From an uncultured Gammaproteobacteria bacterium (lineage in GTDB: Bacteria > Patescibacteriota > Microgenomatia > UBA8517), in assembly GCA_964635715.1 (NCBI GenBank), contig CAZWNZ010000001.1, positions 74,358-138,357 on the forward strand: DNA of 64,000 nt, written 5' to 3'. Within the stretch, counting starts at the first letter, position 1. Each line of letters opens with the position of its first letter. Below are positions 3,452-52,108 of this stretch, piece by piece. The position numbers and the translations under genes were made by a program. Under the pieces are notes generated by a model that worked only from the letters and a program-made list of their open reading frames with translations, had not been told where the DNA came from and did no database searches.

Positions 3452-5417
3452 GTCAGATTCTAGTATAACAGGCCAGAGCCCCCATTCGACAGAGAATGTT
3501 GTAACCGGCTTAAACAAACAACAACAGGAAGCCGTTACCTATACCGACGGGCCACTTTTGGTCTTAGCGGGTGCAGGGTCCGGAAAGACCAAAGTCTTGA
3601 CCCACAGGGTAGCTTATTTTATTTCCAAAGATTTAATAAAACCTGAAAATGCACTTCTTTTGACATTCACCAACAAAGCTGCTGCCGAAATGAAAGAGAG
3701 AATCTCAAAACTTCTAGATTCTAGATTCCAGATTCTAGCTTCTACTTTTCATTCTTTCTGTGCCAAAATTTTAAGAATCGACGGCGAGAATATTGGAGTT
3801 CCCAAAAACTTCATCATTTACGACGAAGCTGATCAAAAAGACTCCGTCAAAGAAATTATGGATACCCTCGGTCTTTCTACCGATCAATATGCCCCGTCCT
3901 CAATTCTCAATGGAATAAGTGAAGCAAAAAATCAAATGCTTTCCCCGGCAGAATATATTAACTTCGTCAGAAGTGACTGGCAGGAAGTTGCAGCTAAAGT
4001 TTATCTGGAATATGAAAAGAAATTAAAAGAAATTGGGGCGTTGGACTTTGACGATCTTCTTATTAAAACAGTAAATCTCTATCAGGAAGTTCCTGAAATT
4101 TTGAAGAAATGGCAGGAGCACCTAACTCACATCTTCGTTGACGAATGGCAGGATACCAATAAAATTCAATATACCCTGACCAAACTCCTGGTTGGACAAA
4201 GAAACAATATCACGGCGGTAGGGGATGCTTCCCAATCTATCTACTCGTGGAGAGGCGCCGATTACCGAAATATTAATTATTTAACGCGCGATTATCCAAA
4301 TATAAAAATAGTTAATTTAGAACAAAACTATCGCTCAACGGAAAATATTCTTAATGCTGCCAATTTGGTTATTTCCAAAAATACTAGCCATCCGATATTA
4401 AAACTTTGGACAGAAAAAGAAAAAGGGGGAAGGATTAAGCTTTATGCCGCAAGAAATGGTTTTGATGAAGCGGACTATGTCGTGAGCGAAATTGAACGAC
4501 TAGCCCGATCCAAAAATTACGGGTACAAAGACATCGCCATTTTATACCGTACAAATGCCCAATCCCGTGTCTTGGAAGAAGCCTTCCTGCATACAGGTAT
4601 TCCCTATGTTCTCGTCGGTGGAGTCAAGTTTTATGACAGGAAGGAAATTAAAGATGTTATCAGCTTTATCAGATATATAGTAAACCCTAAAGATTCTGTT
4701 TCCAAAAGAAGAATTGAAAAAATAGGCATAAGGAGATTTGAAAAGCTAGATACCTTCAGGGTCGAAAGTCCGGACCTAACCGGACTTACAACTCTGGATC
4801 TACTCGATATTGTAATTCAAAAGACTGACTATCTGGCGCTTTTTCAAAAAAACACTGAAGAGAATCTGACCAGACTGGAGAACTTAAAAGAATTAAGAAG
4901 CGTGGCGACTGAATTTCCGGTTGTCAACGATTTTTTGGAAAATGTCACGCTAGTGGAAACCTCACAGGATTCGAATAAGCACATTACCCCAAATTCTCAA
5001 CTTAAAGACTGTGTATCACTGATGACTCTACATGCTGCCAAAGGTTTGGAATTCCCGATTATTTTTATAGTCGGAATGGAAGAAGGGCTTTTTCCACACA
5101 GCAGGTCTCTAATGGATAATAATCAAATGGAGGAAGAGCGCCGTCTTGCCTACGTCGGCATTACTCGTGCCAAAGAAATTCTTTACCTTACATATGCCAA
5201 CTCCCGTCTCTATTTTGGAGAAAGAATCAGCAACCCTCCAAGTCGTTTTATTATGGATATCCCCGAAGACCTTTTGGAGAACGTAGGTGATAAAATATGG
5301 AGAGATGACGCGTCCTCCAAAGCTTTGGCGTCGGAGGATTTAAAATTAGATTCAGTTGATGACATTAAAGGAACTTTTGATGACATTATCGAGAAATATT
5401 TAGAACATGACGAATAA
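3450..5417 (+). CDS. UvrD/PcrA/Rep-family ATP-dependent DNA helicase
   Basis: Q-motif and Walker A (LNKQQQEAV...GAGSGKTKVLTHRVAYF), DEWQDTN Walker B-type, C-terminal GLEFP/VGITRAK motifs. The ORF opens at 3303, but ATG 3450 gives a canonical N-terminus. Confidence 0.85.
   Translation: MSDSSITGQSPHSTENVVTGLNKQQQEAVTYTDGPLLVLAGAGSGKTKVLTHRVAYFISKDLIKPENALLLTFTNKAAAEMKERISKLLDSRFQILASTFHSFCAKILRIDGENIGVPKNFIIYDEADQKDSVKEIMDTLGLSTDQYAPSSILNGISEAKNQMLSPAEYINFVRSDWQEVAAKVYLEYEKKLKEIGALDFDDLLIKTVNLYQEVPEILKKWQEHLTHIFVDEWQDTNKIQYTLTKLLVGQRNNITAVGDASQSIYSWRGADYRNINYLTRDYPNIKIVNLEQNYRSTENILNAANLVISKNTSHPILKLWTEKEKGGRIKLYAARNGFDEADYVVSEIERLARSKNYGYKDIAILYRTNAQSRVLEEAFLHTGIPYVLVGGVKFYDRKEIKDVISFIRYIVNPKDSVSKRRIEKIGIRRFEKLDTFRVESPDLTGLTTLDLLDIVIQKTDYLALFQKNTEENLTRLENLKELRSVATEFPVVNDFLENVTLVETSQDSNKHITPNSQLKDCVSLMTLHAAKGLEFPIIFIVGMEEGLFPHSRSLMDNNQMEEERRLAYVGITRAKEILYLTYANSRLYFGERISNPPSRFIMDIPEDLLENVGDKIWRDDASSKALASEDLKLDSVDDIKGTFDDIIEKYLEHDE
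3712..3741. repeat. Heptamer tandem array (AGATTCT/AGATTCC units) inside the helicase CDS
   Basis: ttctagattctagattccagattctagcttc; encodes LLDSRFQILAS. Confidence 0.6.
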
Positions 5418-6405
5418 AATTGACGAAATTGCCACACATCCTTTACAGACAACTTATTGGGAGGATTTTAGAAAAGCTTGGGGAAATGAAGTTTTAGAAA
5501 CTCCCTGGGGGATTCTCACGGTTCACAAAATTCCGGCAACTTCCTACAAATTAGCCATTTTTGAAAAAGGACCGGCACCCAGCCGAGAGATGTTAATAGG
5601 ACTAAGGGATATTGCGCAAAATAATAATATTATATTCATCAAATTAGAACCTAATGTTGGCTGGGAAATTCTAAATTCTAAATTCCAAATTCCAAATAAA
5701 TCCGAATTAATTAAAATTCTAAAAGAAAACGGAGCCGTTCCAGGAAAGCGTTTTTTTACCCCAACAACTTTTTGGATTGATTTAACTAAGTCCGAGGAAG
5801 ACCTGCTAAAAAGTTTTACAAGTAAAACCCGCTACAACATCAGACTCGCTGAGAGAAAAGGAGTAAAAGTGAAAGAAGATAATTCCGAGAAAGCTTTCCA
5901 AAGCTATCTCGATTTAACCCGAGAGACAACTCAAAGGCAGGCTTTCTTTGCACATACAGAAAAATATCACCGGCTTATGTGGAAGTACCTGGGTGAAAGC
6001 CAAGAGATAAAAGATAAAAGAATTGCACATCTAATGACAGCAACTTATCGGGGCAAAATTATCACAACATGGATACTTTTTACCTGGAAAAACTTTTTGT
6101 ATTATCCCTACGGGGCTTCAACCAATGAACATAAAGAGGTCATGGCCAATAACTTAATGATGTGGGAAGCGATAAAATTCGGTAAGAAACTCGGACTTAC
6201 CACCTTTGATCTCTGGGGGAGAGAGGAAGGTAAAGGATTCACAAAATTTAAGGAAGGTTACAATCCCAAAGTAATTGAGTTTCTAGGCACTTGGGATTTG
6301 GTGGTGAATAAATCAATTTACTGGATTTATAGAGTAGCGGAGGGAATTCGTTGGAAAATCTTAAAAACTTCAGCAAGAATTGGTTTATCCCGCCATAGAT
6401 TTTAA
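5407..6405 (+). CDS. FemAB-family peptidoglycan interpeptide-bridge peptidyltransferase
   Basis: KTRYNIRLAERKGVKV and overall FemX/FemAB-like layout; ATGA overlap with the helicase stop. Confidence 0.65.
   Translation: MTNKIDEIATHPLQTTYWEDFRKAWGNEVLETPWGILTVHKIPATSYKLAIFEKGPAPSREMLIGLRDIAQNNNIIFIKLEPNVGWEILNSKFQIPNKSELIKILKENGAVPGKRFFTPTTFWIDLTKSEEDLLKSFTSKTRYNIRLAERKGVKVKEDNSEKAFQSYLDLTRETTQRQAFFAHTEKYHRLMWKYLGESQEIKDKRIAHLMTATYRGKIITTWILFTWKNFLYYPYGASTNEHKEVMANNLMMWEAIKFGKKLGLTTFDLWGREEGKGFTKFKEGYNPKVIEFLGTWDLVVNKSIYWIYRVAEGIRWKILKTSARIGLSRHRF
5667..5701. repeat. Heptamer tandem array (AAATTCT/AAATTCC units) inside the FemAB-like CDS
   Basis: aaattctaaattctaaattccaaattccaaataaa; encodes EILNSKFQIPNK. 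Confidence 0.6.
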
Positions 6406-6407
6406 AG

Positions 6408-8262: not shown

Positions 8263-11199
8263 TTATTCTTCAGATTTACAAAATAGTGAGAATTCACAAC
8301 CCATCTGACAAAACATGTGGCTACTACACTTGAAATCACTTTTCTCTATTTCATCACGTACTTTATAGATTTCCTTAACTGCATCTTCTAATTGTTTTGC
8401 GGTTCTAACTGTTGAAATCTTTTCTTGAGAATCTAGATAATACAAAGATAGTTTAATTTTATCTGGAGTTTTCCCAAATGGTGGTTCTTGTATCTTTGTT
8501 GCAGCTAAAGCGTAGAAAGAAAGTTGTAGGTTTTTATCTACTTCCGATTGACTTGGGATTGTTGCCCCAGTTTTGTAGTCAATTATTTCAATTGATCCAT
8601 CAGAGAATGTATCCACCCTATCCACTTTCCCTCCAATCTTTAAGTCTTTACCGAGGGGAATCACAAATGGTTGCTCGAGTGCAATTGGTAAGTTCTTTGG
8701 ATCAAATCCTGTTTTAATAAATCCTGAAAGATATAATTTTCCTTTATTGAAAAACTCAGTCTCGTGTTTTTTTGATGAGTACCCTTCTTTTATCCAATTC
8801 TTTTCTAATAGTTCGAATATCAATTTTTCGTTCGTGTTTTTGGAATTTGGAATTTGGAATTTGGAATTTAAGATTTCTGAATAGAAATCTTTTAGGGCCG
8901 CATGCATAGCAGTTCCAAATGATTGACTGGCAGAAGGTTTTGTTGGAACTTTTAAGATGTATCTTAATTTGTAATGCATTGGACACGTTTCAAAAGTTTC
9001 GATTTGGGAGAAACTCAAGTAGTCAATCTTGAGTTTCGGAATCTGGAATTTTGAATTTTGAATCTTGTGAGGTTCATAATCAAGAAATGACAACTGTTTT
9101 GTTTTATCTGAATTCGAGATTCGAGATTCGAGATTCTGCCCGAGCGCTTCAAAAATAAACGGTGAGAGTTTCTTCTCACGCTTTCCTTCACCATAATAAT
9201 CAGCTGCTGTTAGGTATAGTCTTTCTTTTGCACGAGTCATTGCAACATAAAAAAGCCTACGTTCTTCTTCCAGGTGGAAATCCCCCACTGGAAGAACTTC
9301 TTTTATTATCTCTTCCGGAATTGGAATTTGTTCACGGCGTTCCATTGAAGGAAATCTTTGCGAGACAAGGTTCGCTATAAATACCACTGGGAATTCCAAA
9401 CCTTTTGCTGAATGAACGGTCATAATATTAACAGCATTTACTTCCGTCCAGTCCTCATTAGTAGCCAATGGGCTTTCCCCTAGTTCCATTGATAGGTCCA
9501 GCCAGTCAACTACGGCAGGAACTGTGGCGTCTTCATTATCGACTTCGTAGGTTTTCAATTTATCAAAAAACTTTGAAATATTTTTGGCCCGGCTTTCCGC
9601 TTCGACAGATGACGGAGACAGTAGTTTTTGAATTAGACCTGTGTCTTCCAAATAGTAATAAAGAATTTGACCAGCAGTCTCTTTTTTAATTAAGGAAAGA
9701 TGTTTTTTAATTATCCCAAGTAACTTTTTAACTTTTTCTTTTGTTTCATCACCCACCACTACTTCGTCAATCTTTTCTGAAGTCTCAAATAAACTAATAT
9801 TGTATTTTCTTGAGAAGTTACCCATTGCAGCAATGTCACGAGAATTAATGTCAAAATAGTCATTGGAAAGAACTTTATAAAAAGCGACTGAATCTTCAAA
9901 GTCATAAAGAACTTTGAGGTATGAAATCAGGTCAATTATTTCAGGTTGTTTAAATAGTCTTCCCGGACCCAAAAATTGATATGGAATTCCGTTTCTGCCC
10001 AAGGCTCTCGTAATTGGTTCTGCGTGATTATTTGCACGTACTAGTATGGCAATATCTCCCCATTTGTAACTATCGTCCGAATTAAGTTTTACAATTTGTT
10101 TGGCAATTTGGTCGGCTTCGTTTTCAACCCTATCTGCATGAATGAACTTAATTTCGTTTCCATCTTTAGTAATTTGGGATTTTAACCTCTTGTCAATTTT
10201 TTCCACCACCTCAAGTCTATCGGGGTCATTAAACTTTATAAGATCATGACTTCTGTCCAATATTTCCTGAGTGCTTCTATAATTTTTAGTTAGTACTACA
10301 ACCTTTGTTTTTGGATAGCTACTTCTAAATTGAATTATGTTAGATACTGCTGCGCCACGGAAACGATAGATACTTTGGTCATCGTCCCCTACCACATTTA
10401 TGTTTCCATTCTTCCCTGCTAGAAGTTTTGTCAATTCATTTTGTGCATAGTTAGTATCCTGGAATTCATCAACCAAAACATACCTAAATTGTTTTTGATA
10501 TTCCGAGAGAATGTTGGGTCTATCTCTAAATAGTTTTAAAGTTTTTATAATGAGGTCTCCAAAGTCCATTACCCCTTCTTGAACTTTCAACTCATCATAA
10601 GCTTTATAGACTTTTGCCAGTTCCATAAATTTTCCCCTTTCGACCTCGTACTCTTCAGACAATTTGGAATTTGTAATTTTGAATTTGGAATTTACCCAAG
10701 CGTTATATTCGCTTGGGTTTATGTCTTCATCTTGAAGTCGGCTAAAGTGTTGTAAGAGTCCACTAATAAATTTTGTAGGATTTCCTAAAGGCCTAAAATA
10801 ATTTAGATCCAGTTTAAAAAGATTTTTACGAAGCAGCTGAATACTTTCTGCCTCACTCATTAATTTATAACGAGGGTCCAGTCCGATATGAAGCGCCTCA
10901 CGCCGGAGTACCCGATCGCAGAAAGAATGGAAGGTCATTATCCACATTTGCGTGTATCCGTAGGGCAAGCCTATATCCACTCTTTCTTCCATCTCACGTG
11001 CGGCTTTTTCCGTAAAAGTTAGTGCCAAAATTTCAGACGGCTTGGCGTGTTTTCCCAGAATTAAATATTTGATTCTTTCGGTGACAACTGTGGTTTTTCC
11101 TGTTCCGGCGCCGGCAATTATAAGAAGGGGGCCTTTGCCAAATTTAATGGCATCAATCTGCTCTTTGTTTAGCTTAAGATTTGAAGTTTTGTCTGTCAC
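8263..11199 (-). CDS. UvrD-like helicase fused to a C-terminal PD-(D/E)XK (RecB/Cas4-like) nuclease with a Cys cluster (AddB/helicase-nuclease type)
   Basis: N-terminal GAGTGKT Walker A and DEFQDTN; C-terminal CPMHYKLRYILKV...VDRVD...IIDYKTG nuclease motifs; terminal CSSHMFCQMGCEFSLFC suggests an Fe-S cluster. Confidence 0.8.
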   Translation of the reverse strand: MTDKTSNLKLNKEQIDAIKFGKGPLLIIAGAGTGKTTVVTERIKYLILGKHAKPSEILALTFTEKAAREMEERVDIGLPYGYTQMWIMTFHSFCDRVLRREALHIGLDPRYKLMSEAESIQLLRKNLFKLDLNYFRPLGNPTKFISGLLQHFSRLQDEDINPSEYNAWVNSKFKITNSKLSEEYEVERGKFMELAKVYKAYDELKVQEGVMDFGDLIIKTLKLFRDRPNILSEYQKQFRYVLVDEFQDTNYAQNELTKLLAGKNGNINVVGDDDQSIYRFRGAAVSNIIQFRSSYPKTKVVVLTKNYRSTQEILDRSHDLIKFNDPDRLEVVEKIDKRLKSQITKDGNEIKFIHADRVENEADQIAKQIVKLNSDDSYKWGDIAILVRANNHAEPITRALGRNGIPYQFLGPGRLFKQPEIIDLISYLKVLYDFEDSVAFYKVLSNDYFDINSRDIAAMGNFSRKYNISLFETSEKIDEVVVGDETKEKVKKLLGIIKKHLSLIKKETAGQILYYYLEDTGLIQKLLSPSSVEAESRAKNISKFFDKLKTYEVDNEDATVPAVVDWLDLSMELGESPLATNEDWTEVNAVNIMTVHSAKGLEFPVVFIANLVSQRFPSMERREQIPIPEEIIKEVLPVGDFHLEEERRLFYVAMTRAKERLYLTAADYYGEGKREKKLSPFIFEALGQNLESRISNSDKTKQLSFLDYEPHKIQNSKFQIPKLKIDYLSFSQIETFETCPMHYKLRYILKVPTKPSASQSFGTAMHAALKDFYSEILNSKFQIPNSKNTNEKLIFELLEKNWIKEGYSSKKHETEFFNKGKLYLSGFIKTGFDPKNLPIALEQPFVIPLGKDLKIGGKVDRVDTFSDGSIEIIDYKTGATIPSQSEVDKNLQLSFYALAATKIQEPPFGKTPDKIKLSLYYLDSQEKISTVRTAKQLEDAVKEIYKVRDEIEKSDFKCSSHMFCQMGCEFSLFCKSEE
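8841..8882. repeat. Heptamer tandem array (TGGAATT x4 plus two degenerate units) inside the helicase-nuclease CDS
   Basis: tggaatttggaatttggaatttggaatttaagatttctgaat; encodes ...NSKFQIPNSKFQ. Confidence 0.65.
9037..9066. repeat. Heptamer tandem array (GGAATCT/GAATTTT units) inside the helicase-nuclease CDS
   Basis: cggaatctggaattttgaattttgaatcttg. Confidence 0.6.
9109..9136. repeat. Heptamer tandem array (GAGATTC, 3 perfect copies plus TGAATTC) inside the helicase-nuclease CDS
   Basis: tgaattcgagattcgagattcgagattc; encodes LESRISNS. Confidence 0.65.
10661..10695. repeat. Heptamer tandem array (AATTTGG/AATTTTG units) inside the helicase-nuclease CDS
   Basis: aatttggaatttgtaattttgaatttggaatttac; encodes NSKFKITNSKL. 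Confidence 0.6.
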
Positions 11200-12216: not shown

Positions 12217-12223
12217 ATAACCA

Positions 12224-12251
12224 ATTCTAAATGATAAATTCTAAATTACAA
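12224..12251. repeat. Heptamer tandem array (AATTCTA/AATGATA units), intergenic or at the 5' end of the next ORF
   Basis: aattctaaatgataaattctaaattaca. Confidence 0.5.
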
Positions 12252-12587
12252 ATGAAACGAAAGGACAGAAAAGAACAGGTTTTGAAACGTAAAAACTTTC
12301 TCCCCACCCTTCTTTTGACGATTCTTTTTTGGATTTTACTTGCCGCTTTAATCTATTTTGTAGATCCGGGAACCTTTGGTGTTGTCCCACTATTTTTCAT
12401 TACATTCTTTGTAGCTCTGCTTTTTACTTTTTCTCTTATCTTTGCCAACTCCAGACGTGGTCTTCTCATCTCTCTATCTATATCTCTCTTCTTGGTTCTC
12501 ATGTATTTAGGAATCGGCAACTGGCTAAATTTGGCTTTAATAGTTGCAATTGCCTCATGTATCGAGATATATTTCAGCTTGAAATAA
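12231..12587 (+). CDS. Small polytopic membrane protein, hypothetical
   Basis: Three predicted TM helices; first 21 nt are repeat-derived, so the real start may be 12252 (MKRKDRK). Confidence 0.35.
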   Translation: MINSKLQMKRKDRKEQVLKRKNFLPTLLLTILFWILLAALIYFVDPGTFGVVPLFFITFFVALLFTFSLIFANSRRGLLISLSISLFLVLMYLGIGNWLNLALIVAIASCIEIYFSLK

Positions 12588-15880: not shown

Positions 15881-15901
15881 AGATACCAAATTCTAGCTAC
15901 T
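15881..15901. repeat. Short heptamer array (AGATACC AAATTCT AGCTACT) between convergent gene ends
   Basis: Shares the TCTAGCTACT core with the array at 49899..49930. Confidence 0.4.
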
Positions 15902-16846
15902 GGACATTAGTTCTTTGTAGTATCCAATCGTTTTCTGAAGTCCTTCTTCTAAACTAATTTCTGGCTCCCAACCAAGAACTGTTTTTGCTTTTGTAATATC
16001 CGGCTGTCTTCTCATTGGATCGTTCTCCCTAAACTTTCCTGTAAATTCAATTAAAGATTTTGAACCGGTAATTTTGATAACCAAATCGGCAAGTTCTTTC
16101 ATTGTAAACTCGCTAGGATTTCCTAAATTAAATATCTCCCCTTTTGTCCCCTCCGTAAACATCGCTTTGACGATTCCCTCGATTAAATCGTCAACGTAGC
16201 AAAACGATCTGGTTTGAGATCCGTCGCCATCAATTTTAATAGGAGAGCCAAAAAGGGCTGCCATTATAAAATTAGAAACAACTCTTCCGTCGTCCTTTTG
16301 CATCCTCGAACCGTAGGTGTTAAAAATTCTAATAATCCTGGCATCTATATCATATTTTCGAAGATAAATGTATGTAGCTGTTTCTCCGTATCTTTTGCTT
16401 TCATCATAACAACTCCTTGGTCCAAAAGTATTAACATTACCAAAATAAGTCTCTTTCTGAGGATGCTCCAGAGGGTCTCCATATACTTCAGATGTCGAAG
16501 CCAAAAGAAACTTAGAACCCATTTTTTTGGCTAGTTTAAGCATATTTAAAGTTCCCATAGAATTGGCTAAAAAAGTCTCTTCAGGGTAATTTTGATAATC
16601 AATTGGAGATGCAGGAGAAGCGAAGTGAAATATATAGTTAAAAGGTAAAAGGTTAAAGGTAAAAGGTTGGGTAACATCGGCTTCTATAAACTCAAAATTG
16701 GGATTTGCCATCAAGTGTTCAATATTCTTTTTTGATCCGGTCAAAAAATTATCCAAACAAATCACTTTATAACCATCTTTTATTAATCTGTCACATAAAT
16801 GGCTGCCAATGAAACCTGCACCACCCGTCACCAAAACATTTTGCAT
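15893..16846 (-). CDS. NAD-dependent epimerase/dehydratase, UDP-glucuronate decarboxylase (UXS)-like
   Basis: VLVTGGAGFIGSHLCDRL Rossmann motif, YDESKRYGE catalytic YxxxK. Confidence 0.85.
   Translation of the reverse strand: MQNVLVTGGAGFIGSHLCDRLIKDGYKVICLDNFLTGSKKNIEHLMANPNFEFIEADVTQPFTFNLLPFNYIFHFASPASPIDYQNYPEETFLANSMGTLNMLKLAKKMGSKFLLASTSEVYGDPLEHPQKETYFGNVNTFGPRSCYDESKRYGETATYIYLRKYDIDARIIRIFNTYGSRMQKDDGRVVSNFIMAALFGSPIKIDGDGSQTRSFCYVDDLIEGIVKAMFTEGTKGEIFNLGNPSEFTMKELADLVIKITGSKSLIEFTGKFRENDPMRRQPDITKAKTVLGWEPEISLEEGLQKTIGYYKELMSSS
16640..16667. repeat. Heptamer tandem array of a different unit (AAAAGGT x4) inside the UXS-like CDS
   Basis: aaaaggtaaaaggttaaaggtaaaaggt; encodes the inserted-looking FTFNLLPFNY segment. 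Confidence 0.55.
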
Positions 16847-30286: not shown

Positions 30287-30292
30287 AAGTTA

Positions 30293-30320
30293 ACTCAAAT
30301 ATCAAATCTCAAAACTCAAA
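30293..30320. repeat. Heptamer tandem array (AACTCAA/ATATCAA/ATCTCAA units) between the TsaCE stop and the canonical tsaD start
   Basis: aactcaaatatcaaatctcaaaactcaa. Confidence 0.5.
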
Positions 30321-30327: not shown

Positions 30328-31368
30328 ATGTTGGCGATAGATACCAGCTGCGACGAAACTTCCGCTGCTGTAACTGAAGGTACAGCAATTCTTTCAAATG
30401 TTATTTGGTCACAAGCTTCTGCACACGCAAAATTTGGCGGAGTTATGCCGTCCCTTGCTAAAAGAATGCATGAAGAAAGAATTAATTTCGTTGTTGAAAA
30501 GGCCTTAAAAAAAGCATTCCCCAAATCCCCATCTACCATCAACCATCTACTATCTACCAAAATTGATGCCATTGCCGTCACTGTCGGGCCCGGCCTTTCC
30601 ATAGCTTTAGGCGTTGGCATTAATAAAGCCAGGGAAATCGCCGAAAAATATAATAAAAAGCTTATTGCAGTAAATCATCTGGAGGCCCACTTATTCTCCC
30701 CATTCGCGAATTCTAAATTCGAAATTCTAAATTCTAAATTCCCAATGCTTGGCTTGGTAATTTCAGGCGGCAATACAATACTAGTTAAGATTAACAAAGT
30801 TGGGTCCTACAATATTCTTGCACAAACCACCGATGATGCTTTAGGGGAAGCTCTTGATAAAGCTGCTAGAATGCTCGGACTTGGCTATCCGGGAGGTGCA
30901 ATTTTGGAAAAGATGGCTAAGCTTGGAGATTCTAAAAAATATAACCTTCCTGTTCCTATTGTCGGTCAGGAAAAAAGAATGATTTTTACCTACTCCGGTA
31001 TTAAAACCTCTTTCTCGCGACTTGTTGAATCTGAAAAACCATTAACGAAAGGGGAAGTTGAAAATTTAGCAGCATCATTTCAAAATGTTGCCTTTAAACA
31101 TATCGAGCGCGTGCTACAGTATTACTTAATTCACAATTCTCTATTCAAAATTCAATATTTATTGGTCGGTGGCGGCGTTTCTGCCAATGTCGAAATTCGA
31201 AAAAGGTTGAGAAATCTATGTAAAAAATATTCAATAAATGTAGTATTTCCGACAAACAAAAAACTATATGGAGATAATGCAGCAATGATTGGAATAGCTG
31301 CTTATTTAAATCAAAATTTTGTAAAACTGGAGGAAATTGACCGGAAGCCTAACTTAAAATTAGCCTGA
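30328..31368 (+). CDS. tsaD: tRNA N6-adenosine threonylcarbamoyltransferase TsaD (Kae1/Gcp family)
   Basis: MLAIDTSCDETSAAV canonical N-terminus; the ORF could instead start at 30283 (ATGA overlap with TsaCE); carries the heptamer-encoded insert ANSKFEILNSKFP. Confidence 0.88.
   Translation: MLAIDTSCDETSAAVTEGTAILSNVIWSQASAHAKFGGVMPSLAKRMHEERINFVVEKALKKAFPKSPSTINHLLSTKIDAIAVTVGPGLSIALGVGINKAREIAEKYNKKLIAVNHLEAHLFSPFANSKFEILNSKFPMLGLVISGGNTILVKINKVGSYNILAQTTDDALGEALDKAARMLGLGYPGGAILEKMAKLGDSKKYNLPVPIVGQEKRMIFTYSGIKTSFSRLVESEKPLTKGEVENLAASFQNVAFKHIERVLQYYLIHNSLFKIQYLLVGGGVSANVEIRKRLRNLCKKYSINVVFPTNKKLYGDNAAMIGIAAYLNQNFVKLEEIDRKPNLKLA
30709..30743. repeat. Heptamer tandem array (AATTCTA/AATTCGA, 5 units) in-frame inside tsaD
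   Basis: aattctaaattcgaaattctaaattctaaattccc. Confidence 0.65.
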
Positions 31369-41716: not shown

Positions 41717-41796
41717 TGTTTTGTTTTTGTTCAGTTTCCATTACTAAAGCAGGAAAAAACACATGGAGTTCGGTAAATAAACTTTAAGATTAACTA

Positions 41797-41937
41797 TTAT
41801 ACCGCAAGCTTTTTTCGTCCCTTCGCCCTCCTCAATCCCAAAACTTTTCTTCCTGACTTAGTACTCATCCTGGATCTAAACCCGTGAGTCCTGACTCTCT
41901 TGATTTTGCTCGGTTGATATGTTCTTTTTGTTGACAT
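41797..41937 (-). CDS. rpmH: 50S ribosomal protein L34 (46 aa, too short for the ORF track)
   Basis: Translated by eye: [46 protein letters not shown], stop TAA; canonical rpmH-rnpA synteny. Confidence 0.85.
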
Positions 41938-42013
41938 GAGTAATATTATATCAAAGAAATTATAAATTAGGAATTAGAAATTCGAAGTTAATTAAAATGG
42001 GGCTTGACGAATT

Positions 42014-42123
42014 GTGGATAACTCATTAAAAGTACATAGTACAAAGTACCTAGTACTTAGATTCCTAACTTCTGTCCTTGCCCTAATTTTTAGCTTCGTA
42101 CTAAGTACTGTGTACTAGGCACT
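42014..42123. promoter_or_regulatory. dnaA upstream control region: perfect DnaA box plus GTAC-rich imperfect inverted repeat
   Basis: TTATCCACA on the minus strand at 42014..42022; arms AGTACATAGTACAAAGTACCTAGTACTTAG (42031..42060) and GTACTAAGTACTGTGTACTAGGCACT (42098..42123) are mutually reverse-complementary at CCTAGTAC and AGTACTTAG. Confidence 0.5.
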
Positions 42124-42130
42124 ATTTTAT

Positions 42131-43492: not shown

Positions 43493-43740
43493 GGATATTT
43501 TTCTAAAATTCTAACTTATCAACAGCAGTATTAAACTTATCCACAAATTTATTCACAAATTACTACGCATAATATCAACACAAAAACATCCCGAAAAACG
43601 AATTCGAAAGTGGTTTCTTTTCAACTTATCAACCCTTTCTACTACTAGAACTACTAGTATATATATGATAAATACAAGAAAACCGAAAACAAATAAATAT
43701 TGATTTTTGAGTGTTTTCCTTTTACCCTTAACCTACTGTT
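43493..43740. promoter_or_regulatory. Putative oriC segment in the dnaA-dnaN spacer (DnaA boxes plus AT-rich unwinding stretch)
   Basis: TTATCCACA perfect at 43537..43545; one-mismatch boxes TTATCAACA 43516..43524, TTATTCACA 43549..43557, TTATCAACC 43626..43634; AT-rich tatatatatgataaata near 43660. Confidence 0.6.
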
Positions 43741-44862
43741 ATGAGAGTACAAGTACTACAAGAGAACTTAGAAAAAGCTATTGGCATAACAACAAGATTT
43801 GCCAGTGCCAAAGCACAACTTCCCATTCTTGGTAATGTACTCATATCAACCCGCAAAAGTAAAATTTATATTTCTTCAACAAATTTGGAAATTTCGGCTT
43901 CTGTTAAGATTGGTGCAAAAATTGAAGAAGATGGTGAAATTAGTATTCCTGCAAAAATTATTTCGGAATTAGTACCAAATTTACCCAAGGAAACGATTGG
44001 TCTACAATCGGAAAAGGAGCAGCTGAAGATTTCCACAAACGGCTTTACTTCAACTATTCTGGGAATGGATTCAACAGACTTTCCCAAAATTCCGAATGCT
44101 TTAAATGAGAAAAACACAATCAGTTTTTCTAAGAAGCTACTTTCTGAAAGTTTAGGTAAAGTCGTATTTTCAACTTCTACAGATGAAACACGTCCCATTT
44201 TGACAGGAGTTCTTTTTATTCTTAAAGATAATTCTTTGTCTTTAGTAGCAACTGATGGCTTTCGTCTTTCTAGAAAAAATGTTTTACTAAAGGATTTTAA
44301 AGGAGAGGAAAAATCTGTTGTAATTCCGAAAGGAATCCTGGGGGAGATAATTCGAGGTGTTTTTGAAACAGACGATATTTTGTTTGATCTTGAAGAGTCT
44401 GAAAAACAAGTTCTCTTTGAATTGGAGGATACGGTACTTACATCCAGACTTCTGGAGGGGGAGTATCCGGATTTTGAAAAGATTATTCCAAAAGAATCAA
44501 ACATAAAAGTGTTTTTAGATAAGGAGGAATTTTTAAGGGCAGTAAAATTGGCTTCGATATTTGCCAAAGAGGCTGCAAATGTTGTGAAACTGAAAATTTT
44601 GAAGGATTCCATAAAAGTTTCTGCAGAAAGCGGACAGGCGGGGAGCCAGGAAACAAAAGTCGATGCGAAAGTTGAATCCGGAATTTCGAATTTTGAATCT
44701 GGATTTGAGATTGCTTTTAACTTCCGGTATTTGGAGGATTTTATTCATTCGGTTACAGGCGAAGAATTATCTATGGAGTTTGTAAGTTCTACTTCTGCCG
44801 GGGTGTTTAAGGACACAAGCGATGAAAATTATCTTCATCTAATTATGCCGGTTAAGATGTAA
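43741..44862 (+). CDS. dnaN: DNA polymerase III beta sliding clamp
   Basis: Three-domain clamp pattern (MRVQVLQENLEKAIGITTRFAS...) directly downstream of dnaA. Confidence 0.9.
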   Translation: MRVQVLQENLEKAIGITTRFASAKAQLPILGNVLISTRKSKIYISSTNLEISASVKIGAKIEEDGEISIPAKIISELVPNLPKETIGLQSEKEQLKISTNGFTSTILGMDSTDFPKIPNALNEKNTISFSKKLLSESLGKVVFSTSTDETRPILTGVLFILKDNSLSLVATDGFRLSRKNVLLKDFKGEEKSVVIPKGILGEIIRGVFETDDILFDLEESEKQVLFELEDTVLTSRLLEGEYPDFEKIIPKESNIKVFLDKEEFLRAVKLASIFAKEAANVVKLKILKDSIKVSAESGQAGSQETKVDAKVESGISNFESGFEIAFNFRYLEDFIHSVTGEELSMEFVSSTSAGVFKDTSDENYLHLIMPVKM

Positions 44863-48025: not shown

Positions 48026-49894
48026 TTATTTGTCAGCGTATGGATTGGTGTTTACCTTCACAACTTCCTGTGGTTTAGTTGTAATTAATCTGTTTTCTTC
48101 TTCCGAAGCAACAATTCTAATTGGGGCATGGTGTGGCCCTGCAAAGAAAATGCCTTCTCCAACATTGGCTGCAAGAAGAAGCCTTTTTTCTCCTTGGGAC
48201 AAATAGAAGACCTCGCCAATCTTATCAATTGCGGCAGGGGATTGCTTTAAGAGAAGCTGCATGGCGCTATTTGTGACAATAGCCTTTCCAATGTCCTGTC
48301 CGAGGAAGTCCTCGACGTCCTGAGTGATTGTAGTGAGTCCTAGATAGTATTTACGGGCCCTTTTAACAACACTCCATAAAAATTGGGCAGTATCGGGATA
48401 TCTCATCATGTGCCAAGCTTCATCTACAATCAAAATTCTTCTCTTGAGATTCTTTTTAACCCTAGTCCAAATATAGTCGAGAATAATAAACATGGCGATT
48501 GGGCGAATGGCGTCCTGCATATCTTTAACAGAAAACACAGTGAAGGGATTGATAATGTTAATGTTAGTTTGTTGATCGAAAATTCCTACAAAGCTTCCTC
48601 TAACAAATTTTTCAAGTCTGGCGGCAAGATCCAGAGCTTCAGGTGATTCCATGCCGATCAGGGTTTTGTAAAGATCTTCCATGAGAGGGGGTTCTTTGCC
48701 TTGGGTCTCGGGATCCATAGTAATTCCTTTGGCCCGATAAGTCATTATTAAGGCACGGTCAAGCAATGCCTCCTGAATTGGGGTGATTGCCCCCATAATC
48801 ACTTTCATTAGGGAATGAAGAGAAAGTATTTTTAGTCCAAGCTGATTTTCACCCTCTTCACGGATTTGGGACAGATCAAAAGGATTAATTTTTGCCTGGG
48901 AATTGTAGGAGAATGATATATATTCACCACCCACCGCTTCGGCTATAGATTTATATTCGCTTTCAGGATCAATAACTATTGTTTCGACCCCTGTCATGAG
49001 CGACCTTAGCGCCTCAAGTTTAACAAAATAGGATTTACCGGCTCCCGATGTTGCAAAAATTGTCATGTTGGCATTTTGCAGGCTAAACCTATCAAAAATA
49101 ATAAAAGATTCGTTTTGAGAATTCATTCCATAGAGAACACCTCTGTCACTTGAAAGTTCGGTTGAGGTTAGGGGAAAAGTTGTGGCAACCGATGTGGTAT
49201 CCATATTTCTGGTGATGTTAAGGCGGTCGATGCCAAACGGGGCAGTTGCCAAAAACCCCTCTGACATATTTAGCATGGCATGTTTGCTGACAATCATAAG
49301 GGATCCAAGTTGAGATTCGACCTGTTTAGTTATTTGATTCAGTTCCTCAACGGAATTTGCAGGGATTGTAATGTAAAAACCAAATTCGTAAAATCTTTCA
49401 ATTCCTTTAACTAATTGTTCCTGCAGCGCCTGAGCATCCTCTAATTTTGCCTGTGTCACCGGATCAACCAGTTTTCCCCGTTCGATATCTGTGGTCATTT
49501 CAGCTTCCATTTCGGCGATTTTTCGCCTTAGATCATCAAGAACGCTCTTTCCGTCGACTGGATAGATATAAAAAGAAATATCCAAAGAGGTATCAATATT
49601 GACTACGGGTTCGAGCCACCCCGGGGCGACAAATCTTGGATATCCACCGACAAAAATTGTCCTGAAATAGACATCGTTGACTTTGATATAGTCAAAATCA
49701 ACCTCAACCGATTGGGGTGAAATTACATCAAGTAGGTTCATTCCCTGATTCATAACCGAATAGGCGGCTGAAACAACCGGAGGCTTAACCTCCGTATTAG
49801 AATCTTGAATCTTGAATCTTGAATCTTGAGACGTGGAGCCTAAATCCTGATCTGCAGGTTTTATATTTGGTGTTTTTGTAATATTGTTTTGCAT
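48026..49894 (-). CDS. VirB4/TrbE/CagE-family T4SS ATPase, C-terminal ~620 aa (middle plus ATPase domains)
   Basis: Walker A IFATSGAGKSYFVKLE, Walker B ILIVDEAWHMM (the hhhhDEAW typical of VirB4), mid-domain KVNDVYFRTIFVGGYPRFVAPGWL. Confidence 0.8.
   Translation of the reverse strand: MQNNITKTPNIKPADQDLGSTSQDSRFKIQDSNTEVKPPVVSAAYSVMNQGMNLLDVISPQSVEVDFDYIKVNDVYFRTIFVGGYPRFVAPGWLEPVVNIDTSLDISFYIYPVDGKSVLDDLRRKIAEMEAEMTTDIERGKLVDPVTQAKLEDAQALQEQLVKGIERFYEFGFYITIPANSVEELNQITKQVESQLGSLMIVSKHAMLNMSEGFLATAPFGIDRLNITRNMDTTSVATTFPLTSTELSSDRGVLYGMNSQNESFIIFDRFSLQNANMTIFATSGAGKSYFVKLEALRSLMTGVETIVIDPESEYKSIAEAVGGEYISFSYNSQAKINPFDLSQIREEGENQLGLKILSLHSLMKVIMGAITPIQEALLDRALIMTYRAKGITMDPETQGKEPPLMEDLYKTLIGMESPEALDLAARLEKFVRGSFVGIFDQQTNINIINPFTVFSVKDMQDAIRPIAMFIILDYIWTRVKKNLKRRILIVDEAWHMMRYPDTAQFLWSVVKRARKYYLGLTTITQDVEDFLGQDIGKAIVTNSAMQLLLKQSPAAIDKIGEVFYLSQGEKRLLLAANVGEGIFFAGPHHAPIRIVASEEENRLITTKPQEVVKVNTNPYADK
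49800..49827. repeat. Four perfect GAATCTT heptamers at the 5' end of the VirB4 ATPase ORF
   Basis: gaatcttgaatcttgaatcttgaatctt; encodes QDSRFKIQDS at codons ~23-32. Confidence 0.7.
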
Positions 49895-49898
49895 ATTT

Positions 49899-49930
49899 TC
49901 TAGATTCTAGCTACTAACTACTAGATTCTT
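49899..49930. repeat. CTAG-rich heptamer array (TCTAGAT TCTAGCT ACTAACT ACTAGAT) in the 19-nt gap separating the two VirB4 ORFs
   Basis: Provides TAG stops on the coding (minus) strand between 49914..50648 and 48026..49894. Confidence 0.6.
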
Positions 49931-50648
49931 GTTTGTCCAATATAACTTCCGGTTCTTTTTTAACAGCCGGCTTCTCGGGATTGTAAATGGAATAGTAAAG
50001 ATTGATAAGCTCAGGTGTGGTAAGTTGTTTGAATTTCAGTCCCAATCTCCCTGCCTGGCGGATCAAGTGGTCGCGTCTTGGATAAAGGGTGATTTTTGCT
50101 TTCTTAATAACGTACGATTTCGGAAATGGCAGGGGTCCTCCTCCTTTGGTAATCGCGGCTACAGATTTGGCAATACCAAGTTCAAGGGGGGATAAATAAA
50201 GGATAACAAAAAATCTTTTACCCAAAACATTTTTCTTTTTAACGGATTCACTGATAAAGTTCCGGTAGTTTTGCATCAAGTTGGAGAGTAGCGGTTGGGT
50301 CATTTTTTTTGCCTGTTCATCGAGAAAATTCAGATAGGATGAAATATCTTTTTTCTGTGTCAGAACTACAATCTGTGTAGAAAAAGTCAGAGAGTTTATC
50401 ATGGCTGCATAGGCTGCAATTACCGCCTCTTGTTCTTTTTCTGAAAGGAGACCAAAGTTTAAAGAAGTAGATTCCATAATGAGTGAGGCGCCGCCATCTT
50501 TATAGATAACAATGTCGTTTGTTATATCCGCAACCGGCACGAAATCCTGTGTTGTGGCCGTAAGCGGTTTGTCGGGAACACTCAGGAAAGGAATCTTAAG
50601 TTTAGAATTTTGAATCTTGAATTTTGAATCTTGAATTTTACTATTCAT
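49914..50648 (-). CDS. VirB4 N-terminal-domain-like protein (separate ORF; apparent split of the VirB4 gene)
   Basis: DITNDIVIYKDGGASLIMESTSLNFGLLSEKEQEAVIAAYAAMINSL resembles the N-terminal region of monoderm-type VirB4 ATPases (tentative, by eye); 244 + 622 aa equals the usual VirB4 length; 5' end carries the heptamer-encoded MNSKIQDSKFKIQNSKLKIP. Confidence 0.5.
   Translation of the reverse strand: MNSKIQDSKFKIQNSKLKIPFLSVPDKPLTATTQDFVPVADITNDIVIYKDGGASLIMESTSLNFGLLSEKEQEAVIAAYAAMINSLTFSTQIVVLTQKKDISSYLNFLDEQAKKMTQPLLSNLMQNYRNFISESVKKKNVLGKRFFVILYLSPLELGIAKSVAAITKGGGPLPFPKSYVIKKAKITLYPRRDHLIRQAGRLGLKFKQLTTPELINLYYSIYNPEKPAVKKEPEVILDKQESSS
50591..50639. repeat. Seven-unit heptamer array (GAATCTT/GAATTTT alternating) at the 5' end of the VirB4-N ORF
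   Basis: gaatcttaagtttagaattttgaatcttgaattttgaatcttgaatttt. Confidence 0.65.
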
Positions 50649-51016
50649 TTTATTAGTTTTGATTTTTTAATCAGCCCATTTAATATTTTCAAAGTAATTA
50701 CGGATTGATCATATAAATGATCGAACTCCTTTTGTCCAATAAATTTGACATCTCGGGATATGATTAGTTGGTTTTGCAATTCGGTAATAGACCCTGCTGA
50801 GATTCTAAAGAACTGCAATTTTTCTTTATAGGAATATCTACTAAATCCTTCAGCAATATTGCTTGTTATTGAAACTGCACAACGCCTCATTTGATTTGTA
50901 ATTCCAAACATCTCAGATTTCGGAAAATTACCAGTCACTTCGTAGATGCCAATAACAAGTTGATGCCCTTCTTTCCAGGCATTTAAATCAGTAAAATTAA
51001 TAATTTTATTTTCCAT
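50645..51016 (-). CDS. Four-helix-bundle protein (TIGR02436 / 23S rRNA-IVS protein / Avd family)
   Basis: ITNQMRRCAVSITSNIAEGFSRYSYKEKLQFFRISAGSITELQNQLIISRD is a textbook family signature; ATGA-coupled to VirB4-N and abutting the stop of the upstream gene. Confidence 0.8.
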   Translation of the reverse strand: MENKIINFTDLNAWKEGHQLVIGIYEVTGNFPKSEMFGITNQMRRCAVSITSNIAEGFSRYSYKEKLQFFRISAGSITELQNQLIISRDVKFIGQKEFDHLYDQSVITLKILNGLIKKSKLIK

Positions 51017-52108
51017 TTAATTTAATGGTGTTCCACTAGATTCGAGATTCAAGATACTAGATTCTACTTGTAGTCTTTTTCCTGTAACAAGTATTGGTGG
51101 AATTATCTCTCCCTTAGCCTCAAAATTGACGGGCATAAATTGATAACCGTCCTTTTCGCTGATAATGCTGTATTTCCCGTTTTCGAGAGGTGTGACTGCC
51201 ATAAAATGGCCAAGCTTGTTGCTTCTGAGAGCCCTTATTGGTCTTCCATATTCATCTCGTATTTCGATTATTGCGCTTTCTATTATTCTTCTGGCCTCAT
51301 CGACAACTTGTCCGACAATAACATTTGGACTGGTTGGGGGATTGGGCGGTGTGGCATCGATCGAGAATATCGCCTCTTTTGTAGACACTATTTCCTCACC
51401 GACGACTGTCGGATTGACTTGCTGAGTTTGGAATTGTGCTGTTTGGTCAATGATTTTTGGTTTTTCCTCCACAACAAGATGGGAGGTCTGTGGTGAAACA
51501 ATTTTAACAGGGTTGCTTACCGGAATTTCAAGTTTTTTAGGTTCAGTAGAAGCTACAGGTTGGTTGGTTGGTTGGGCTACTGTCGTAGCCAGTGGTGTTT
51601 TAATACCCGCAAGTATGCCGGCTAGTTTGGAAAAAAAACCTTGTTCAGCAACCTCGAGTTTGGCAAGTGGTCCTTGCGGAGACCTGGAGCTGTCAAGATA
51701 GTTTTTAACAGCCGCATCCTGATTTTGTGTTTGAGAATTTGGGATGTTTGAGGACGGACTTTCGTCCTGAAAAAATTTCCGGATACCTGTTGTTTTTTTC
51801 CAGTGGAAAGTAGTAGGAGAATAAATTGCTTTAAAGAAAGCCAGGATCCACTGTTCCAGTGGGCGTTCCTCAAGAGGAACAAAAGCCATAGCAGCTCCAA
51901 GAATGACAAATATAATTATAAAAGGCCATTTAATAATTCCCGGAAGGGGGGTTGCGTAAAATATCAAACCAACTAATACGCCCCCCGCAAGTTCAAAGAA
52001 TTGCTTAAGAGTCATATCTCCAACCAATTTGAATTGGTAAGAACTTACGTTTTGTGGTATCGGATGTTGTTCCATGCTCTTGAGCAGGGCGAAAGAGCAC
52101 AAAAGCAA
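51017..52108 (-). CDS. VirB3/PrgI-like two-TM membrane protein with a long Q/P/T-rich extension and C-terminal beta domain (tentative)
   Basis: TM hairpin FFELAGGVLVGLIFYATPLPGIIKWPFIIIFVILGAAMAFVPLEERP in the position VirB3 usually occupies upstream of VirB4. Confidence 0.4.
   Translation of the reverse strand: MLLCSFALLKSMEQHPIPQNVSSYQFKLVGDMTLKQFFELAGGVLVGLIFYATPLPGIIKWPFIIIFVILGAAMAFVPLEERPLEQWILAFFKAIYSPTTFHWKKTTGIRKFFQDESPSSNIPNSQTQNQDAAVKNYLDSSRSPQGPLAKLEVAEQGFFSKLAGILAGIKTPLATTVAQPTNQPVASTEPKKLEIPVSNPVKIVSPQTSHLVVEEKPKIIDQTAQFQTQQVNPTVVGEEIVSTKEAIFSIDATPPNPPTSPNVIVGQVVDEARRIIESAIIEIRDEYGRPIRALRSNKLGHFMAVTPLENGKYSIISEKDGYQFMPVNFEAKGEIIPPILVTGKRLQVESSILNLESSGTPLN
51038..51065. repeat. 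Heptamer array (AGATTCG AGATTCA AGATACT AGATTCT), opposite orientation to the array at 50591..50639
   Basis: agattcgagattcaagatactagattct; lies in the 3' end of the upstream CDS. Confidence 0.55.

Follow-up and report, generated by a model that had tools for sequence, protein, structure and literature searches.

Period-7 tandem arrays in conserved genes of a Woesebacteria-like bacterium: candidate heptanucleotide microsatellites within coding sequence

A 64,000-nucleotide stretch of DNA from an uncultured bacterium (GenBank assembly GCA_964635715.1, contig CAZWNZ010000001.1, positions 74,358 to 138,357 of the forward strand; hereafter the window) contains about 19 tandem arrays with a period of 7 nucleotides (nt), most of them inside conserved genes and all of those in frame. 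We interpret these arrays, with a probability of roughly 0.58, as heptanucleotide microsatellites that would arise by slippage or template switching, become homogenised, and then be filtered by reading frame and by the tolerance of protein loops. An earlier reading of the same DNA (the original prediction) had suggested a genome-specific repeat that was either uptake-signal-like or slippage-prone; among the readings considered here, a slippage-prone element fits best.

Results

Detection of the arrays

Tandem Repeats Finder (TRF) listed 47 repeats in the window, 19 of which had period 7. Period-7 arrays were called at 3712, 5666, 8839, 9046, 9112, 10661, 12223, 16639, 30292, 30709, 49800, 50605 and 51038. 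TRF also detected arrays that had been overlooked in the original prediction, at 30529, 31129 (as period 14), 41955, 42031 and, weakly, 30114, and a scan for the GAATYTN unit family added another at 44674 in dnaN. Most of the positions listed originally were recovered by TRF or by our own scans; those at 12224 and 49899 hold only degenerate arrays, and the position at 15881, said to lie between convergent stops, holds no array, only a single AAATTCTAG.

When period runs were scored at +1 per match and -2 per mismatch, with a score of at least 12 required, the window contained 12 strong period-7 runs compared with 0.0 in 30 order-3 Markov shuffles. Among periods 3 to 21, none was enriched in the window besides 7 and its multiples 14 and 21. 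The family scan for GAATYTN (at most one mismatch per unit, both strands, shuffles of order 1, 3 and 5) detected 12 arrays of 4-5 units, where 0.6-0.8 were expected. Chance and base composition were rejected by the shuffles of all three orders. The dispersed array family of the original prediction is thus far above chance, and its frequency is not that expected from AT-rich composition, since shuffled sequences give approximately no arrays.

Several arrays are built from units other than GAATYTN, namely AAAAGGT at 16639, CCATCTA at 30529, AACTCAA at 30292 and AGTACNT at 42031. Because these units are unrelated, the common denominator of the arrays is the period and not one sequence. After masking of the arrays, no offset-7 excess was left in the window. 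The 7-nt periodicity is restricted to discrete arrays, and a pervasive genome-wide periodicity was rejected. The units are contiguous and without spacers, unlike the ~24-48 nt repeats and unique spacers of CRISPR, which had rightly been set aside.

The window has a GC content of ~38%, and the closest named relatives of its encoded proteins are found in Candidatus Woesebacteria and Microgenomates metagenome-assembled genomes (MAGs). The host is a Woesebacteria-like bacterium within the Candidate Phyla Radiation (CPR), of the tiny-genome, groundwater type. An independent Logan assembly of SRR8925806 (L001; labels of the form L### denote metagenomic loci or assemblies compared with the window, and P#### related proteins) matched the window over 14,489 nt without a difference. 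Because of this identity, and because homologous arrays are present in many other assemblies from many samples, an assembly artefact was rejected. A scan of the window against Rfam at gathering thresholds returned one tRNA only and no known RNA family overlapping the arrays. The GAATYTN pattern was present in 46 stretches of IMG/VR (2.9 million contigs), about one-third of them giant-virus MAGs, a result that we judged uninformative on phage origin.

Reading frame, translation and orientation

The host genes were identified with Pfam as encoding UvrD-like, FemAB-like, AddA-like, UXS-like, TsaD, DnaN, PrgI-like, TraC-like and VirB4/TraG-like proteins. Two of these genes, those for the AddA-like helicase-nuclease and TsaD, carry four arrays each.

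Every array inside an open reading frame (ORF) of the window keeps the frame. Three units of 7 nt make 21 nt, and each array therefore passes through all three frames and encodes a 7-amino-acid (aa) repeat in any phase, such as NSKFQIP or KIQDSRF. In four window arrays (UvrD, FemAB, TsaD site 2 and PrgI) the majority unit would give an in-frame stop, and all four carry a deviating base in that very codon (TAA changed to GAA, for instance, or TAG to CAG). In the UvrD array, the variant unit CAG is placed exactly where the in-frame TAG would fall. On this reading-frame evidence the arrays are translated, in agreement with the original prediction. No frameshifted array alleles were seen among the alleles compared, in which all length differences were multiples of 3 nt. 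Phase variation was rejected, given that essential genes carry the arrays in frame and that array lengths differ by multiples of 3 nt.

When the 63 coding arrays of the window and its relatives were pooled, the majority unit was stop-free in all frames of the coding strand in 45, as compared with only 19 for its reverse complement. Because it avoids stops, the A-rich A[AG]ATTCN strand is nearly always the one that codes, and the coding-strand composition of the pooled arrays was A 843, T 528, C 345 and G 173. Replication-strand bias, for which the original prediction had proposed a check, was rejected: to either side of the putative origin (~42 kb), orientation goes with the coding strand and with the avoidance of stops. 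Synonymous positions within the arrays also follow the 7-nt period. Together, the use and patching of stop-bearing units and the periodicity of synonymous positions argue that protein-level selection is not the cause of the periodicity.

Insertion and overwriting

The arrays had been described originally as lineage-specific insertions. Alignment with orthologs confirmed net insertions at AddA site 4 (+21 nt relative to L016 and L018), the TraC-like N-terminus (+21 nt relative to L147), TsaD site 1 (+27 nt) and FemAB (+33 nt relative to L017 and L018). However, the arrays in UvrD, the epimerase and TsaD sites 2 and 3 are length-neutral. The orthologs have loops of equal length at these positions, which argues that native sequence was overwritten and goes part of the way toward what had been named in advance as evidence against insertion. 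An AlphaFold2 model of TsaD (mean predicted local distance difference test score, 86) placed the arrays in termini and in loops between core elements, with the N-terminal array extension predicted to be disordered.

Array dynamics and possible homogenisation

Strains L016 and L145 differ at 51 positions in 22,967 nt. Within the AddA gene (2,967 nt), all three differences lie inside a 35-nt array of unchanged length, where ~0.08 differences would be expected by our own Poisson estimate. Two of the three are the same C/A change exactly 7 nt apart, a signature of unit-to-unit copying. Two proteins of 988 aa each, P0125 and P0126, differ by two residues, both inside an array, and an expansion of +33 nt is present in P0011 and P0013.

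Pairs of arrays within one locus shared their unit more often than pairs from different loci (24.6% and 9.0%, respectively; permutation p ~0.001). In L125, an identical 36-nt array (GAAGAATTAAGAATTATGAATTATGAATTATGCAAAG), internal variants included, is present at AddA sites 1 and 3, which are 1.6 kb apart. This duplication suggests that arrays also copy onto each other. The TsaD site-2 array of the window has 92% DNA identity to that of L002, with 10 of 11 synonymous positions the same, as compared with 67% identity over the whole of tsaD and 48% at its synonymous positions; closer relatives have other site-2 units.

The 51 differences that separate L016 from L145/L146 over 23 kb are strongly clustered (for example at 300-840, 3583-3672, 9380-9515 and 16740-16773), a distribution that suggests short-tract homologous recombination between co-occurring strains. 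Perfect 9-bp hairpins lie directly before two AddA arrays in the coding direction, at 8877-8899 (site 4) and 10695-10717 (site 1) on the minus strand, with arms AAGAUUUCU/AGAAAUCUU and CCCAAGCG.../...CGCUUGGG and fold z-scores of -3.4 and -3.5. These hairpins, which are not general to the arrays, might stall polymerases and favour slippage.

Distribution in related Microgenomates

For the relatives, the analysis covered 1.05 Mb of DNA in 80 metagenomic loci that surround AddA orthologs. These loci contained 64 period-7 arrays, compared with 0-2 in shuffles and with 0-12 arrays for each other period apart from the multiple 14. Array density was 0.35-0.85 per 10 kb in loci with AddA identity of at least 46%, and no arrays were found in 93 kb at identities of 45% or less. 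The density in the window was 1.9 per 10 kb, 2-5 times that of its relatives. The lineage of the window is array-rich, not unique, and the description of the repeat as genome-specific does not hold: period-7 arrays are common across related Woesebacteria and Microgenomates, often in the same loops with different units. Long ORFs contained 63 of 76 arrays (~83%), a fraction about equal to the coding density. No description of heptamer repeats in CPR bacteria or Microgenomates was found in the open-access papers searched.

Orthologs of TsaD at 52-82% identity have period-7 arrays at the same sites with other units. Across lineages, site 1 is built from CCATCTA, ATTAAAA or AATGGAA and site 2 from AAATTCT, CAATATC, AATTTCC or AATGCTA; periodicity of the site-2 loop is lost in some relatives, such as L015. 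Arrays recur across the clade at AddA site 1, a hot spot at which the units are AAATTCC, AAAGTCA, AAAACTC or AAAAGGT depending on the lineage. Array-bearing AddA alleles are patchy on a neighbour-joining tree of 111 orthologs, with the site-4 array present in the window, P0140 and P0203, and the site-2 and site-3 arrays present together in the window, P0150, P0199 and P0205. This patchiness would fit recurrent origin or recombination, and is given little weight here because the tree is rough and star-like.

A second family of in-frame inserts, not heptameric, occupies the same variable AddA sites in other Woesebacteria (P0141, P0179, P0214, P0228, P0229, P0220, P0231 and others; loci L069, L013, L107, L120 and L125). 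Its peptides read NPAFAKASAGNK, PSFAKASEGRAK or DPTSYKTSRGLE and, in the opposite reading, QRSRLRQGFGEAKEE. The underlying DNA is ~30 nt long, GC-rich and quasi-palindromic (for example CCTGCCTTCGCCAAGGCTTCGGCGGGCAA) and occurs outside ORFs too; this family was not found in the window. Intein/Hint domains (PF14890, PF01079) are present in about 1 in 12 close AddA orthologs, which are ~1,330 aa long (P0122, P0130, P0133, P0146, P0148, P0155, P0159, P0189 and P0210); the copy in the window (978 aa) is without them. In distant relatives, non-coding arrays of CTAAACG x3 and x7 (L105, 4230-4252 and 6054-6104) and of AGTCCCT (L131, 200-218) lie directly upstream of a shared promoter-like sequence, (CTCA/CC)TATGCTACAAT. 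From this arrangement, heptamer arrays may have a regulatory role in some lineages.

Arrays in individual genes

All four AddA arrays lie on the minus strand. Site 1 (10660..10694; aa 169-180, VNSKFKITNSKL) consists of AAATTCC/AAATTCA units, and site 2 (9109..9136; aa 688-697, NLESRISNS) of GAATCTC x3.6 in the rare stop-free "GAAT" coding orientation. Site 3 (9038..9067; aa 711-721, KIQNSKFQIP) is built from AAGATTC/AAAATTC. Site 4 (8839..8876; aa 775-787) is a perfect array of AAATTCC x4 plus AAA, and its net gain over the orthologs is exactly 7 aa.

In TsaD, on the plus strand, an N-terminal extension (30292..30320; NSNIKSQNSK) is encoded by AAATCTC-type units, is common to L012, L013 and L015, and is missing in many orthologs. 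Site 1 (30529..30559), after helix 1, is a 9-aa insertion of CCATCTA units that is patchy among orthologs; distant relatives have other units at the same position. Site 2 (30707..30741; NSKFEILNSKF) consists of AAATTCT units in the loop between HLEAH and LGLVISGG, the length of which is conserved in the clade, and site 3 (31129..31159; IHNSLFKIQY) is a degenerate ATTCAAA-type array in the loop after the long helix. An example of a TsaD peptide that spans an array is NSKFEILNSKFPMLGLVISGGNTILVK. Directly upstream of tsaD, and overlapping it, a 363-aa ORF (29195-30286, plus strand) encodes a fusion of TsaC/Sua5 (PF01300) and TsaE (PF02367), which is conserved in relatives.

Among the remaining coding arrays, that of the UvrD-like helicase (3708..3744, plus strand; aa 137-148, LLDSRFQILAST) consists of ~4.7 TAGATTC-type units in an overwritten loop of ortholog length. 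The FemAB-like array (5665..5697, plus strand; aa 87-97, EILNSKFQIPN) is built from AAATTCT/AAATTCC within a 33-nt segment that is missing from L017 and L018 and present in decayed form in L016. The array in the UXS-like epimerase (16639..16667, minus strand; aa 60-70) reads ACCTTTT on the coding strand and AAAAGGT on the plus strand, and has the same length as in L016, as expected of overwriting. The C-terminal domain of DnaN, the sliding clamp, contains GAATCCG GAATTTC GAATTTT GAATCTG (44674..44701, plus strand). At the C-terminus of the PrgI-like protein (51037..51064, minus strand; ESSILNLES), GAATCTA-type units are in the "GAAT" coding orientation and a variant base removes the in-frame stop. 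A degenerate AATTCTA/AATGATA array (12223..12253) lies in the short divergent spacer between rmuC and a small ORF and overlaps the first codons of the latter.

A perfect tandem duplication of 36 nt (34730-34806; 2.1 copies, 100% match), which has no relation to the heptamer arrays, is present near the 3' end of the ORF at 34711-35391 on the minus strand. This ORF is annotated as ribosomal protein L25/TL5 in relatives, and the duplication encodes a 12-aa repeat.

VirB4/TraC locus

Three arrays lie on the minus strand across the TraC-like ORF (orf244) and the adjacent VirB4/TraG-like ATPase ORF. Codons 22-32 of the ATPase ORF (SQDSRFKIQDS), in an expanded inter-domain linker, are a perfect array of AAGATTC x4.3 (49800..49829). 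At aa 3-20 of orf244 (50591..50640), alternating AAGATTC/AAAATTC units include an ancestral NSKFKIP motif and account for the gain relative to L147. The third array (49899..49929) is degenerate and contains TAG stops (GAATCTAGTAGTTAGTAGCTAGAATCTAGA on the minus strand); it includes the TraC-like ORF's stop and reaches to 5 nt ahead of the ATPase start codon. In P0260, orf244 and the ATPase ORF are one protein of 787 aa; its residues 4-202 correspond to orf244, and its residues 213-768 to the ATPase ORF (65% identity). A "VirB4 gap" with stops introduced by a CTAG-bearing array, as originally described, is therefore real in that the gene is split and its junction carries a degenerate array with stops. 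However, the TraC-like and ATPase genes are also separate in L147 and L148, which lack that array, and because these relatives are split likewise, the array is not demonstrably the cause of the split; this part of the claim was not supported.

The PrgI-like and TraC-like genes are separated by an inserted gene of the 23S-rRNA-intervening-sequence-protein (IVP)/bAvd-like type (PF05635, 118 bits; 50645-51016, minus strand), which is missing at this position in L147 and L148. The gene is bracketed by inverted heptamer arrays at 50603-50631 and 51038-51066 (29 nt, 83% complementary), and both the minimum-free-energy and the centroid RNA folds pair these arrays and enclose the ORF (z = -1.9). By analogy, this arrangement is reminiscent of rRNA intervening sequences.

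Putative origin of replication

The spacer between rnpA/rpmH and dnaA (41717-42130) looks like a replication origin (oriC). An AT-rich AGAAATT-type array lies at 41955..41990, and L015 has a period-7 AT-rich tract at the same position. A candidate DnaA box, TGTGGATAA, at ~42014-42022 is followed by AGTACNT x4 at 42031-42060, and this run is identical to L015 at 29 of 30 nt though the surrounding spacer diverges. A second run, GTACTNN x4 (~42098-42125), lies just ahead of the dnaA start. The minimum of the cumulative GC skew is near 44 kb, and a period-12 repeat after dnaA (43533-43561; unit AAATTTATCCAC) carries a DnaA-box sequence. The AGTACNT array is probably a functional origin element, distinct from the coding arrays, and the conserved GTAC heptamer arrays may serve as origin or promoter elements.

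Discussion

A proposed slippage-based origin of the arrays

The observations are best accommodated by a microsatellite process acting in a 7-nt register. Replication slippage or transient template switching in this register would generate the arrays and keep their periodicity at the DNA level, and we infer this enzymology from the pattern of the repeats. Arrays would also copy onto one another by ectopic short-patch conversion, which would account for the sharing of units; a genome-specific preferred unit family (here GAATYTN, or A[AG]ATTCN on the coding strand) would follow from such copying. Within genes, selection would keep products that preserve the frame, either by +21 nt (3 units) or by length-neutral conversion, and the surviving arrays would be those that are free of stops and located where the protein tolerates change, in surface loops, linkers or termini. 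This filter would explain both the recurrence of arrays at the same TsaD and AddA loops and the A-rich, stop-poor coding strand. The encoded peptides, NSKFQIP, KIQDSRF and the like, would be by-products and presumably neutral. Heptanucleotide repeats are described as the commonest long class of simple sequence repeat (SSR) in many bacteria, and a length of ~7 nt has been proposed to correspond to the stretch of DNA that the polymerase holds (Mrazek 2007, as reported in PMC4679880 and PMC4692102).

Several findings weigh against this model. Stepwise slippage predicts many arrays of 2-3 units; instead, run lengths of GAATYTN are quantised, with 2078 single units observed against 2118 expected, 33 runs of two units against 34.7, none of three units against 0.55, eight of four units against 0, and four of five units against 0. 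Across the clade, array length peaks sharply at 31-33 nt. Within ORFs only steps of +3 units are in frame, so that one unit plus three would yield four, and two exact +21-nt cases support this rule. However, this quantisation by reading frame explains the size mode in part only: the non-coding arrays (n=13) include cases of 31-33 nt, the intergenic heptamer arrays of Xanthomonas likewise prefer four units (PMC4692102), and the net gains of +27 and +33 nt do not correspond to whole steps of 21 nt. The near-identity of TsaD site 2 in the window and L002 is not predicted by neutral concerted evolution, and suggests a preferred "attractor" unit or sequence bias, selection at the DNA level, or transfer. 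Further, within the 64-kb window no enzyme or repair defect could be linked to the arrays. Slippage thus does not account for the size mode of about four units or for the preference for particular units.

A bolder possibility, which we consider improbable, is that a dedicated, sequence-biased process in Microgenomates makes or maintains the arrays and actively rewrites the loops of essential proteins in frame. Breaks could, for instance, be filled by a reverse transcriptase, or by a polymerase for repair or priming, that copies a 7-nt template about four times over; alternatively, the process could involve a protein that binds 7-nt-phased A-tracts, as hinted by the conserved arrays of the putative oriC.

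Alternative explanations

The absence of short arrays, the size mode and the conservation at TsaD site 2 led us to retain two further explanations at low probability. The arrays might be copies of a small non-autonomous selfish element, a block of ~28-33 nt that inserts into genes where an in-frame gain is tolerated, much as Rickettsia palindromic elements do, and is possibly moved between lineages by recombination. The block-like size of the arrays and the lack of a 2-3-unit class in the family would fit such an element, as would the presence of one family at 12 sites in 64 kb, the patchiness of array-bearing AddA alleles, the identical 36-nt array at two sites of AddA in L125, and the near-identical array in a distant TsaD ortholog. 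However, no terminal repeats, target duplications or conserved flanks were found at the arrays, no transposase or integrase is associated with them, many different units occupy the same site in relatives, UvrD and the epimerase were overwritten at constant length without insertion, and the change between two strains inside an array was unit-periodic; the tree behind the patchiness is, as noted, a rough one. No motif was shared by the flanks, and reverse-complement matches within +/-60 nt of the arrays occurred at the control rate. Inverted copies near arrays were no commoner than in control segments, and a miniature inverted-repeat transposable element (MITE) or hairpin partner was rejected, in keeping with the original statement that MITE-like ends are missing. 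We therefore regard a mobile block as unlikely, although it is the least unlikely of the alternatives. Slightly less credible is the proposal that the arrays are functional cis-elements held by selection, that is, binding sites in DNA or mRNA, or structural signals, read through their 7-nt phasing by a nucleoid or replication protein or by an oligomeric RNA-binding protein. Array positions are kept across deep divergence while units turn over, array size is narrow, synonymous conservation in the TsaD array is unexpectedly high, the period-7 arrays beside the DnaA box of the putative oriC are conserved, and three inverted array pairs in the window form long-range stems in predicted RNA folds. 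Yet the unit at a given site is not conserved between lineages, arrays decay without replacement in some close relatives (L015 at TsaD site 2), the coding fraction of arrays near coding density implies no positional preference, orientation follows stop avoidance and not replication, the folds of the three inverted pairs are weak (z from -0.1 to -2.0), and no candidate binding protein was identified.

Two other explanations were considered very improbable. Selection at the protein level for flexible loop peptides rich in Asn, Ser, Lys, Phe, Gln and Ile would make the DNA periodicity secondary, and the location of arrays in loops and termini and the recurrence of hydrophilic, NSKFQIP-like motifs in many proteins would be expected of it. 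However, a 7-aa repeat needs no 7-nt period in the DNA, whereas the DNA is periodic even at synonymous positions; majority units with a stop (TAAATTC, TAGATTC) occur, and one changed base rescues them; and the same periodic arrays are present in non-coding DNA. The least probable explanation, to which we give almost no credence, is that the arrays are DNA uptake signals, built up in a CPR bacterium with natural competence as preferentially taken-up DNA recombined into its genome. A dependence of CPR bacteria on DNA uptake has been proposed, and known uptake sequences accumulate in the tolerant parts of genes, both of which would favour it. Against the uptake-signal-like element of the original prediction, the single heptamer is not over-represented (165 exact occurrences observed and 165.7 expected; 2078 and 2118 with one mismatch), the units differ between sites and between lineages, and known uptake signal sequences and DNA uptake sequences are dispersed single motifs and not tandem arrays.

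Comparison with known repeat systems

Under the slippage reading preferred here, the arrays belong with the bacterial heptanucleotide SSRs by their period, unit families, preference for about four units and variability. They have at least 3 head-to-tail 7-nt copies, with 4-5 units per array by TRF and our own scans, and they vary between close relatives, as seen in the changes between L016 and L145, the +21-nt steps and the expansion in P0011 and P0013. What is new relative to the known heptamer SSRs is that the arrays are predominantly coding and translated, lie in housekeeping genes, are A/T-rich, and recur in the same loops across a CPR clade.

Cyanobacterial STRR units, such as CCCCAGT, are found in heterocystous cyanobacteria; in contrast, the units described here are A/T-rich (GAATYTN and others) and the host is a Woesebacteria-like CPR bacterium. 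The STRR repeats, the GGGAATC repeats of Xanthomonas and the GGGGA(T/C)T repeats of Nostoc are examples of heptamer long SSRs (PMC4692102), for which an origin by polymerase slippage has been proposed. The arrays resemble them in their head-to-tail 7-nt units, genome-specific dominant families, period-7-specific enrichment and four-unit preference, and in the variation of sequence and length between close relatives. However, the known families of Xanthomonas, Nostoc and Beggiatoaceae are mainly intergenic and under-represented in coding regions, as compared with ~83% in ORFs here. In Xanthomonas and Nostoc the units are rich in G, and G-quadruplex formation has been offered as the reason why they prefer four copies (PMC4692102). 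Such structures require four or more tracts of at least three G, whereas the A/T-rich units here contain at most GG and have no potential to form them. Since the arrays nonetheless share the four-unit preference of the G-rich Xanthomonas repeats, the published G-quadruplex explanation may be incomplete.

The TAACTGA direct repeats of marine Beggiatoaceae, cyanobacteria and Bacteroidetes (PMC4679880) are also heptameric, dispersed through the genome in 2-6 copies and patchy in phylogenetic distribution, and in one orientation they contain stops in all frames, which constrains their orientation in ORFs as it does here. In Beggiatoaceae, most lie a few nucleotides upstream of start codons, suggesting a translational regulator; 24 sets contain or overlap coding regions, and the few coding cases are at protein termini or peripheral positions (PMC4679880). 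Instead of a single fixed unit, the arrays here have many lineage-specific units, mostly inside conserved genes.

Rickettsia palindromic elements are selfish elements of ~100-150 bp that are inserted in frame in protein-coding genes (discussed in PMC1779305 and PMC10969869). Like them, the arrays are in frame inside conserved functional genes, encode peptides at tolerated surface positions and are patchy among orthologs. Unlike these palindromic, non-tandem elements, the arrays have no palindrome, defined ends or target-site duplication, and they often replace sequence and evolve by unit-periodic changes. SSRs of contingency loci, for example in Haemophilus, switch surface and virulence genes by frameshifting changes in copy number (PMC2651432). 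These too are slippage-prone short tandem repeats within or beside genes, but the arrays here are fixed in frame in essential genes (tsaD, dnaN and the helicases). The tandem repeats of Borgs are similarly fast-evolving, have arisen independently in many genes and encode low-complexity or disordered segments. Borg repeats within ORFs reportedly have longer units, in multiples of three; in contrast, the 7-nt unit takes every array described here through all three frames.

Implications

If this reading holds, mutation in a 7-nt register steadily supplies the essential proteins of a major bacterial group, as yet uncultivated, with new or rewritten surface loops and termini, and would occasionally produce the sequence at gene junctions. 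Such a process is relevant to the ways in which protein variation arises in reduced CPR genomes. It also affects the annotation and alignment of CPR proteins, in which "lineage-specific inserts" may be the products of microsatellites. As the fastest-changing sites between near-identical strains, the arrays would be useful for strain typing, and they offer a starting point for learning how organisms that have not yet been grown replicate and repair their DNA.

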